53,511 nucleotides of DNA from Paraspadella gotoi. Lineage: Eukaryota > Animalia > Chaetognatha. The notes under the pieces are model-generated. The model worked only from the letters and a program-made list of their open reading frames with translations. It was not told the origin of the DNA and ran no database searches. Shown in pieces: positions 24,644 to 25,290 of the stretch. The translations under genes were made by a program, and so were the position numbers. Numbering within the stretch: position 1 is the first letter of the stretch; every line of letters starts with the position of its first letter. The stretch is taken from assembly GCA_051294375.1 (NCBI GenBank), contig JBJCIZ010000622.1, positions 1 through 53,511 on the forward strand. Reading direction: 5' to 3'.

Positions 24644-24870
24644 TATGGTGGACTAAAATCCACCAACCGTTCATCAGCCGGCCATTGGTGCCGGAGGCAA
24701 GTCATTCGCTCTCCCAACCCAAAGGTCCGGGGTTCTAAGCCCGGTGGTCGTCTGGGCAGTTAAGAGGGACGGGGTGCTTAACACGCCTGTAACATGGTGT
24801 TACAGCCTGATCCGAAGCTCAGGGACTGCTTATATTGAACGGGTTCTATCACTAACACATAATAATAATT
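24644..24870 (+). mobile_element. tRNA-derived SINE-like element with twister ribozyme, copy 1
   Basis: 5' hairpin tggtgga/tccacca, A-box-like TGGTGCCGGAGG, B-box-like GGTTCTAAGCC within a T-arm (ccggg/cccgg), twister fold, then a (TAA)n tail. Confidence 0.75.
24756..24829 (+). ncRNA. Twister ribozyme, type P5 permutation
   Basis: P5 GCAGUU/GACUGC; GA-CGG; U^AA at 24779/24780; GCC; P3 UGUAAC/GUUACA; P4 CCUGA/UCAGG; L4 UCCGAAGC; pseudoknots CCG:CGG and GC:GC. P2 is weakened in this copy. Confidence 0.75.
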
Positions 24871-25065
24871 ACTGTCTCTTCATTGTGAGCCCGACTTCCG
24901 AACACAACAGCAACAACAACACTTTCAGGCGACATGCCTCAACCTGCGATGCACTTTCCGCCCACAACACATCAGGCGACATGCCTCAACTTGGTGACGA
25001 ACTTTCCACAACCAACAATTCACTGAAGAGACGCAACAGACTTCTCCCTACGGGAGGGCGGGATG

Positions 25066-25290
25066 TATGGTGGACTAAAATCCACCAACCGTTCATCAGC
25101 GGCCAATTGGTGCCGGAGGCAAGTCATTCACCTCCCAACCCAAAGGTCCGGGGTTCTAGCCCGGTGGTCGTCTGGCAGTTAAGAGGGACGGGGCGCTTAA
25201 CCCGCCTGTAACATGGTGTTAACAGGCCTGATCCGAAGCTCAGGGACTTCTTATATTGAACGGTTCTATCACTAACACAAAATAATAATT
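25066..25290 (+). mobile_element. tRNA-derived SINE-like element with twister ribozyme, copy 2
   Basis: Near-identical direct repeat of 24644-24870. Confidence 0.75.
25175..25250 (+). ncRNA. Twister ribozyme, type P5 permutation
   Basis: Same fold as 24756-24829; U^AA at 25198/25199; P2 CCC with G(A)GG; small insertions in P3. Confidence 0.72.

Follow-up and report, generated by a model that had tools for sequence, protein, structure and literature searches.

A miniature LTR element with a tRNA-derived head and a predicted type-P5 twister in both LTRs as a candidate retrozyme

LTR retrozymes have been described from plants, where they carry hammerhead ribozymes, and the retrozymes of animals are stated to be without LTRs, PBS and PPT in the available sections of PMC7761336, PMC7229834 and bioRxiv 10.64898/2026.07.22.740005. 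According to the retrieved part of PMC4918200, double cutting of plant retrozyme RNA leaves no R region, hence the RNA is circularised and copied round the circle from a tRNA primer. For the retrozymes of axolotl, a weak helix with a palindromic tetraloop cap and circularisation by RtcB are described in the relevant section of PMC7229834. The second closely related system is Helenus (TRIMp3; Kojima 2024, PMC10886601, as far as its accessible text goes), which shares with the element reported here a length below 1 kb, box A and box B in each LTR, a PBS, a PPT and the occurrence of solo LTRs. With regard to the ribozyme, P2 of the twister is described in the excerpts of PMC5408937 as having four pairs, a change of its length possibly disturbing the active site; in nearly all cases P4 carries a G-C on top, and the ribozyme can do without P1, twisters that lack P1 still being able to cleave (PMC5408937, PMC8501958, both in part). 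According to the consulted section of PMC7761336, truncated twisters of RTE elements are the subject of work that is as yet unpublished.

The element analysed here begins at position 24644 of a 53,511-nt stretch of DNA (the window), and all its features listed below lie on the + strand. An abundant miniature element that does not code for protein is present at this locus in one damaged copy; by its anatomy, with a tRNA-derived Pol III head in the LTR, it is classified as a Helenus-type TRIM. An earlier note on this DNA had described two near-identical repeats of about 225 bp with twister-like folds and a tRNA head, and this observation was confirmed. The near-identity stood, with 93.9% identity over 229 alignment columns between 24644-24870 and 25066-25290 and differences that are mainly 1-nt indels, but the end drawn for the repeat did not, because contigs leave the repeat at 24882 and not at 24870. 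Accordingly, the 5' LTR (24644..24882) is 239 bp long and is bounded by contig exit points at both ends, the inner part (24883..25065) comprises 183 bp of non-coding, multi-copy sequence, and the 3' LTR (25066..25290; tRNA head at 25095-25174) lacks its final 12 bp, so that the element consists of 239 + 183 + 225 (cut) bp, in total less than 1 kb. The layout, described in the note as LTR-like, turned out to be a true arrangement of LTRs, PBS and PPT, and a solo LTR of a sister family has a TSD of 4 bp. The note had not included the actual end of the LTR, the PBS, the PPT, the Helenus precedent and the palindromic P1. At the element itself no TSD was seen, in agreement with the note, because the right end has been lost together with the last 12 bp of LTR2. 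The start of the LTR is ambiguous, being either TA at 24644 or a TG that was lost in the present copy; a loose-end line of the contig set X9 that does not end in TG favours TA.

Within the LTR, a hairpin is present in the MFE fold at the 5' end (24646..24665), and by eye a hairpin of other sequence occupies the same place in the solo LTR. The 5' arm of a 7-bp clamp (24667..24673) pairs with 24836-24842 and thereby encloses the tRNA head and the twister; this clamp is retained with different letters in the solo LTR, with duplex energies of -11.1 and -11.5 kcal/mol. A conserved sequence of 29 bp with a fixed start lies upstream of the tRNA head, and a short AAT-repeat run is found near the end of the repeat. 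The inner part contains an 18-nt internal duplication at 24926 and 24973, and its segment near 25020-25035 is able to pair with the LTR end and the PBS (duplex -18.2 kcal/mol). The region between the two repeats has no second copy inside the 53,511 nt, and the reading frame at 24657-25208 gave no Pfam match.

Contigs of four runs were compared with the 586 bp from 24480 to 25065. Three of these runs (X1, X5 and X9) stem from three studies of one organism (A), one of which may be the source of the window itself. Altogether, part of the stretch was contained in 10 of the 12 listed runs, 9 of them from one organism and three studies, and 2315 (X1), 1525 (X5) and 669 (X9) contigs fitted the 586 bp. 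The summed depth, which is not to be read as a copy number, was 1e3-1e5 over the LTR and the inner part versus 0-41 over the left flank. Contigs exit the repeat at the fixed positions 24644 and 24882 into dissimilar AT-rich DNA, with 32 (X1) and 30 (X9) exits before 24644, 11 more before 24643, and 66 (X5) and 39 (X9) exits behind 24882. The joint from the LTR to the inner part is bridged by contigs (records 15-17, 24 and 25), and the joint from the inner part to the LTR start is bridged in several variants, leading from 25056, 25058, 25064 or 25065 back to 24644-24679. The spacer had been called unique in the note; this claim failed, as the inner part occurs in many copies and independent contigs of X1, X5 and X9 connect it with the repeat at either side. 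No single contig runs across the entire locus, so the multi-copy evidence concerns the family and not the individual locus. From organism B (X10), two low-depth contigs were obtained, which were not counted as evidence of range. That data set X9 consists of RNA is no more than a guess, and as it covers the AT-rich flanks as well, it is silent on transcription.

Several contigs are recorded as separate observations. A 1262-nt contig of X5 (record 13, depth 295; fitting 24756-24882) consists of the LTR end followed by 1.1 kb of other sequence and possibly stems from a partner element of greater length or from a different repeat in which the LTR was inserted. One X5 contig joins the LTR end at 24882 to the LTR start at 24644 with four letters between them. 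Flank contigs covering 24544-24644 (X1 and X9) share several differences from the window and cease to match at 24644; these are perhaps derived from an empty site or a paralogous flank.

The features typical of a TRIM were found in the expected places, and the assignment of the element to this anatomy is very probably correct. The inner part starts with a PBS-like site of the tRNA-Trp type (24883..24895), identified by eye in comparison with printed PBSs and containing one mismatch. Counting an extra G, the site agrees in 13 of 14 letters with the tRNA-Trp PBS as printed for Gypsy-32-I_NVi and Helenus-2_SyJa-I, a reference that is not the tRNA of the host. This extra G stands behind 24884 in 53-71% of the depth in X1, X5 and X9 and is absent in 29-47%. 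A polypurine tract (25050..25065; 13 of 16 purines) lies immediately 5' of the 3' LTR; variants of the tract occur at the joints from the inner part to the LTR in X5, and a purine-rich loose-end line was obtained in X1. The tRNA-derived head of LTR1 (24673..24755; about 80 nt) carries box A at 24686-24697 and box B at 24731-24741. Both motifs, as given by Kojima 2024, are present in both repeats, which upholds the tRNA head proposed in the note, and the head is predicted from its sequence to be an internal Pol III promoter and not a functional tRNA. Neither a tRNA nor anything else was detected in the window with ARAGORN and with Rfam at the gathering score.

A solo LTR of a diverged sister family is located at 32262..32498 on the + strand. 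It is 237 bp long, reads TGT...ACA at its ends and has the 4-bp TSD ATAA, which flanks it on both sides and for which the chance of such a 4-mer match is about 1.6%. The solo LTR contains a tRNA head and an intact twister fold with a predicted cut at 32406/32407, and compensatory changes have preserved in it the hairpin at the 5' end, the clamp, the tRNA head and the twister.

Downstream of the tRNA head, each LTR of the element contains a predicted type-P5 twister fold. Fold 1 (24756..24829) has its predicted cut at 24779/24780, fold 2 (25175..25250) at 25198/25199, and the U^A sites named in the note, 419 nt apart, were thus recovered. The elements 3' of the tRNA head are P5, a P2 strand, G-A, a 3-nt pseudoknot partner, a hexamer, U^AA, the other P2 strand, a 2-nt pseudoknot partner, the P3 hairpin, P4 with an 8-nt loop, and P5, and this order from tRNA head to P5...P5 is the type-P5 order as shown in the accessible part of PMC5408937. 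The repeats had been called twister-bearing. This description is correct in so far as the fold is found by a descriptor, but Rfam recognises neither copy even at E 10. Both copies are flawed: fold 1 has a mismatch in P2, and fold 2, in which P2 and the hexamer are intact, has a P5 of only 4 bp and extra letters at the P3/P4 junction. In more than 97% of the family depth, the LTR2 letter is carried at 24775 and 24783, and the letter at 24783 is the pairing one. At E 10, only a weak P26 hairpin match was obtained with Rfam on the element and nothing on the solo LTR.

The fold was searched for with descriptors of different stringency. A strict version matched the solo LTR and a looser one additionally LTR1, whereas 100 shuffles of the window and 9000 of the LTR gave 0 sites; this first descriptor required P3 and a 5-bp P5 and therefore missed LTR2 and the family B repeats of the window. 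With a relaxed descriptor, in which P3 may be absent, 5 sites were found in the window, two of them in family B, versus 1 in 200 block-shuffled windows. A 24-letter core pattern, derived from the same copies, gave 6 sites versus 0 in 100 shuffles. When six copies were aligned, 92.7% of 150 cells were paired, compared with 31-51% in slid controls, and both pseudoknots were paired to 100%. Of 28 pairs, 14 change on both sides, among them one pair of either pseudoknot, one of P2, three of P4 and the pair at the centre of the hexamer, and G-A and A-A of the core are the same in 6/6 copies. As only three families stand behind the six copies, from which the structure itself was derived, these figures overstate independence and the shuffle counts are not probabilities. 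The count of further pair types was no better than in shuffles (408/500), and the twister stretches taken by themselves gave weak folds (z -0.6 to -2.0).

The fold is a twister variant that departs from the consensus in two features, P2 and P1. In all three families, P2 consists of 3 bp and one bulged letter instead of four Watson-Crick pairs, and the P1 hairpin is absent, its place being taken by a self-complementary hexamer (24773-24778 in fold 1). Additionally, the top pair of P4 is A-U and not G-C in the LTR family. P4 comprises 5 bp in all three LTRs, and P5 has 8-9 bp in LTR1 and the solo LTR and 4 bp in LTR2. The self-duplex of the hexamer has an energy of -8.3 kcal/mol in LTR2, -9.1 in family B, -3.8 in LTR1 and -3.7 in the solo LTR; of all 4096 hexamers, 216 qualify. 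Between the families, the pair at the centre of the hexamer is exchanged, C-G giving way to G-C, which is best explained by pairing from copy to copy because this central pair is impossible in a hairpin. Given the deviations in P2 length and in the top pair of P4, activity is likely but not certain, and we consider the type-P5 twister of the LTRs to be probably active. Two other readings were considered and rejected. Derivation of the P4/L4 stretch from 5S rRNA was discounted, as no 5S match was found and the covariation fits a twister, and so was a role of box B itself as the twister loop, as pseudoknot partners in the correct order are missing.

Twister variants of the same kind occur in a second repeat family of the window, family B, which has no tRNA boxes and is otherwise unrelated to the LTR family. 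One copy lies at 37233..37553 (+), with the twister variant at 37440-37500; further copies are a tandem pair at 32760-33036 and 33045-33321, a copy at 41068-41161 (-) and a fragment at 33555-33629 (-). Compared with Rfam Twister-P5 (RF02684), family B reached 25.8 bits (E 0.002), below the gathering score of 37.6. The copies share their 3' end and have variable 5' ends, and together with the tandem pair and the inverted fragment this resembles Penelope-like insertions; the copy at 41161 starts only about 4 letters 5' of the predicted cut. Family B is possibly a twister-bearing non-LTR retrozyme or a Naiad tail.

The remainder of the window is AT-rich, filled with repeats and without a recognisable host gene, and 4 + 141 open frames yielded no Pfam match at the curated cut-off. 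An open frame at 14650-15168 (+) is bracketed by a 91-bp inverted repeat (14595-14685 / 15376-15464). This frame, which has no Pfam match and falls into an Atlas cluster with GIY-YIG on 11% of its members, presumably resembles the C-terminal GIY-YIG endonuclease of Penelope. Penelope elements with such an endonuclease are nearly confined to animals, as stated in the excerpt of PMC8557442. The Gypsy-type PBS and the 4-bp TSD agree with Helenus elements of animals, and the host is putatively an invertebrate. Dispersed and inverted repeat families were noted at 25442-26770, at 21893-22783 / 34993-35844 and at 28645-30903 / 40400-42731 / 45013-46374, among them a foldback-like unit with a 334-bp tandem directly to the right of the element. 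Between 2000 and 12000, about 10 kb of low-complexity sequence are strongly skewed to T/C, which is possibly due to long-read miscalling of a simple repeat and suggests an error-prone assembly.

In the reading that we prefer, while holding the chances for and against it to be evenly balanced, the element would be an LTR retrozyme using a twister, with cutting at both twisters, a circle of about 420 nt and copying by a borrowed enzyme of the Gypsy type. Transcription by Pol III would start near 24673 and, as no TTTT run occurs from 24644 to 25372, would read from the first head through both LTRs. The two twisters would associate by means of the palindromic hexamers and exchange halves, which would give two active sites; only transcripts with two LTRs would then be cut well, and a circle with one ribozyme would be spared. 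Double cutting would release a 419-nt monomer (24780-25198) without a terminal repeat, to be closed by an RtcB-type ligase, and the joint of the circle would be identical to the genomic LTR sequence. Reverse transcription primed by tRNA-Trp could then proceed on the circle and continue across the joint, no template jump being required; the second strand would be primed by the purine tract, and an integrase would insert the LTR-inner-LTR unit with a 4-bp duplication. The features of an LTR retrozyme that were found are a predicted self-cleaving motif in both LTRs, a PBS, a PPT and a non-coding centre. The predicted circle, which was calculated from the damaged copy, is 55% paired with a z of -0.49 and thus no better than shuffles (inner part: z 0.09); by comparison, more than 70% is given for metazoan hammerhead-repeat RNAs in the portion of PMC4918200 consulted. 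For the circle as replication intermediate, we regard yes and no as about equally probable. The retrozyme-like interpretation of the note is partly supported: on the DNA side it gained ground, the spacer being multi-copy and not confined to this locus.

A linear TRIM cycle, in which the twister would replace the Pol III terminator, is a less probable but serious competitor. An RNA that starts at the LTR1 tRNA head and ends at the LTR2 cut would carry a terminal repeat of about 107 nt and undergo normal strand transfers. Such an R region of 107 nt is indeed available, the element has no TTTT terminator whereas the Helenus LTRs in part 7 of the consulted supplement by eye mostly end T-rich after the tRNA part, and the predicted circle has no special stability. 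However, the same full ribozyme is present in both LTRs and that of LTR1 would be transcribed first, a swapped dimer would form two equal active sites, and plant elements of the same layout form circles (PMC4918200, in the part retrieved). Slightly less probable still, and in our view unlikely, is a Helenus-type TRIM with a captured, inactive twister-like piece, the fold being a relic or having a role in packaging or stability. The atypical P2, the A-U pair atop P4, the missing P1 hairpin, the LTRs without an Rfam match and the damaged copies at the locus are in line with inactivity, but a family that is otherwise unrelated shows the same deviations together with compensatory changes, G-A and A-A of the core do not vary in any of the six copies, and the pairing letter at 24783 prevails in more than 97% of the family depth.

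The tRNA head followed by a ribozyme is also the layout of the schistosome Sm-alpha (PMC6765202, in part), and the locus could accordingly be read as one and a half tandem units of a tRNA-headed SINE or of a non-LTR retrozyme driven by Penelope. The short AAT-repeat run near the repeat end would agree with this reading, as would family B, which has the same twister and tandem, 5'-cut and inverted copies like those of Penelope-like elements. We nevertheless judge it improbable, as the ends are fixed on both sides, 29 bp are conserved upstream of the tRNA head, PBS and PPT are correctly placed, the solo copy shows TG...CA and a 4-bp TSD, and LTR, PBS and PPT are absent from metazoan non-LTR retrozymes according to the section of PMC7229834 at hand. 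Least credible of all is a local duplication, a double insertion or an assembly artefact around a unique spacer. Most differences between the copies are indels of one letter, of the kind met in error-prone long reads, and the locus is not spanned by any one contig; on the other side, many variant contigs of X1, X5 and X9 cover the inner part and join it to the LTR on both sides, by which this explanation is refuted for the family. Returning to the twister-based LTR retrozyme, its full form, namely the first LTR retrozyme of an animal and at the same time the first twister retrozyme, a Pol III-driven TRIM with dimer-dependent cutting via a palindromic P1, a circle of about 420 nt, Gypsy reverse transcription and a twister subtype that would also occur in Penelope-like repeats of this genome and perhaps came from them, is put forward tentatively as a possibility that we think somewhat more apt to fail than to hold.

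A literature search, covering few subscription journals, found no twister in an LTR element, no twister retrozyme and no animal LTR retrozyme. If the proposal is true, a Helenus-type tRNA promoter, a twister and Gypsy priming sites have been combined, and the strategy of joining LTRs with a ribozyme would have evolved a second time, on the basis of a different ribozyme class and probably in an animal. For eukaryotic twisters, a further role in retroelements would be added to the trimming of the Perere-3 LINE, and a natural dimer-dependent twister with a shortened P2 would be at hand that is informative on the needs of the active site. With such a short and very abundant element, the reverse transcription of LTR elements from RNA circles becomes a directly testable question.

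Compared with Helenus, animal members of which share the 4-bp TSD and the Gypsy-type tRNA-Trp PBS (PMC10886601, in the accessible text; here the TSD is present at the sister solo LTR only), the present element differs in that the tRNA head is near the 5' end of the LTR and is followed by the twister fold and that no TTTT run is present. By term search, neither "twister" nor a Helenus ribozyme occurs in the retrieved text of PMC10886601, and motif searches of its supplement, with part 7 inspected by eye, revealed no LTR with the twister loop and core. The remaining entries of the supplement or Repbase may hold the present family without the ribozyme having been noted. In the consulted portion of that supplement, the Ajax LTRs have a hairpin that is preceded by a stretch resembling the cut-site core, and the inner part ends with a similar loop; judged by eye, these parts do not stand in the twister order. 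Searches with the family A core in viral, prokaryote-genome and metagenome collections, which are poor in eukaryote DNA, gave 0, 8 and 10 matches, respectively; these 18 were rejected as relatives and taken as chance, as all of them are without a P4 of at least 4 bp and without direct repeats. The combined A/B core gave 0 viral matches.

With the type-P5 twister (RF02684; PMC5408937, in the sections seen), the predicted fold shares the U^AA site, the G-A of L1, the 3-bp and 2-bp pseudoknots, P4/L4, the optional P3 and the terminal P5, and it differs from it by the 3-bp bulged P2, the palindromic hexamer in place of the P1 hairpin and the A-U pair atop P4. The Perere-3 T-variants (PMC8501958, in part) likewise have a twister in a retroelement, but this is of type P1 and trims the 5' end of a LINE; the twister layout of the element resembles S. 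mansoni twisters tabulated in the same source. Metazoan non-LTR retrozymes and Sm-alpha have a similar unit size near 400 nt (available parts of PMC7229834, PMC6765202 and bioRxiv 10.64898/2026.07.22.740005), and Sm-alpha moreover has a Pol III promoter upstream of the ribozyme (PMC6765202, excerpt), but in the sources as far as accessible they differ by type I hammerheads, tandem arrays, the absence of LTR, PBS and PPT, and the link to Penelope. The axolotl retrozymes, with their weak palindromic helix and better cutting as a dimer in the section of PMC7229834 consulted, can be likened to the hexamer of the present twister.

The plant LTR retrozymes (Cervera et al. 2016, PMC4918200, in the retrieved part) are likewise non-coding and have a ribozyme in each LTR (a predicted one here), a PBS, a PPT and solo LTRs. 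They also have a 4-bp TSD, which in the present case is seen at the sister solo LTR only, and, as animal Helenus do, a PBS and a PPT of the Gypsy type, and the loss of the R region upon double cutting is a further common trait that is predicted here. They differ by a type III hammerhead, a tRNA-Met PBS, circles of 600-1000 nt and the absence of a tRNA-derived promoter, and in the same part of that source their circles are demonstrated, whereas the circle of the present element is a prediction. The element, on which Rfam found no hammerhead, is not a member of the hammerhead retrozymes. With a tRNA-derived head and a predicted twister in each LTR, it would copy itself through a small RNA circle, a design that has so far been described only in plants and with another ribozyme.
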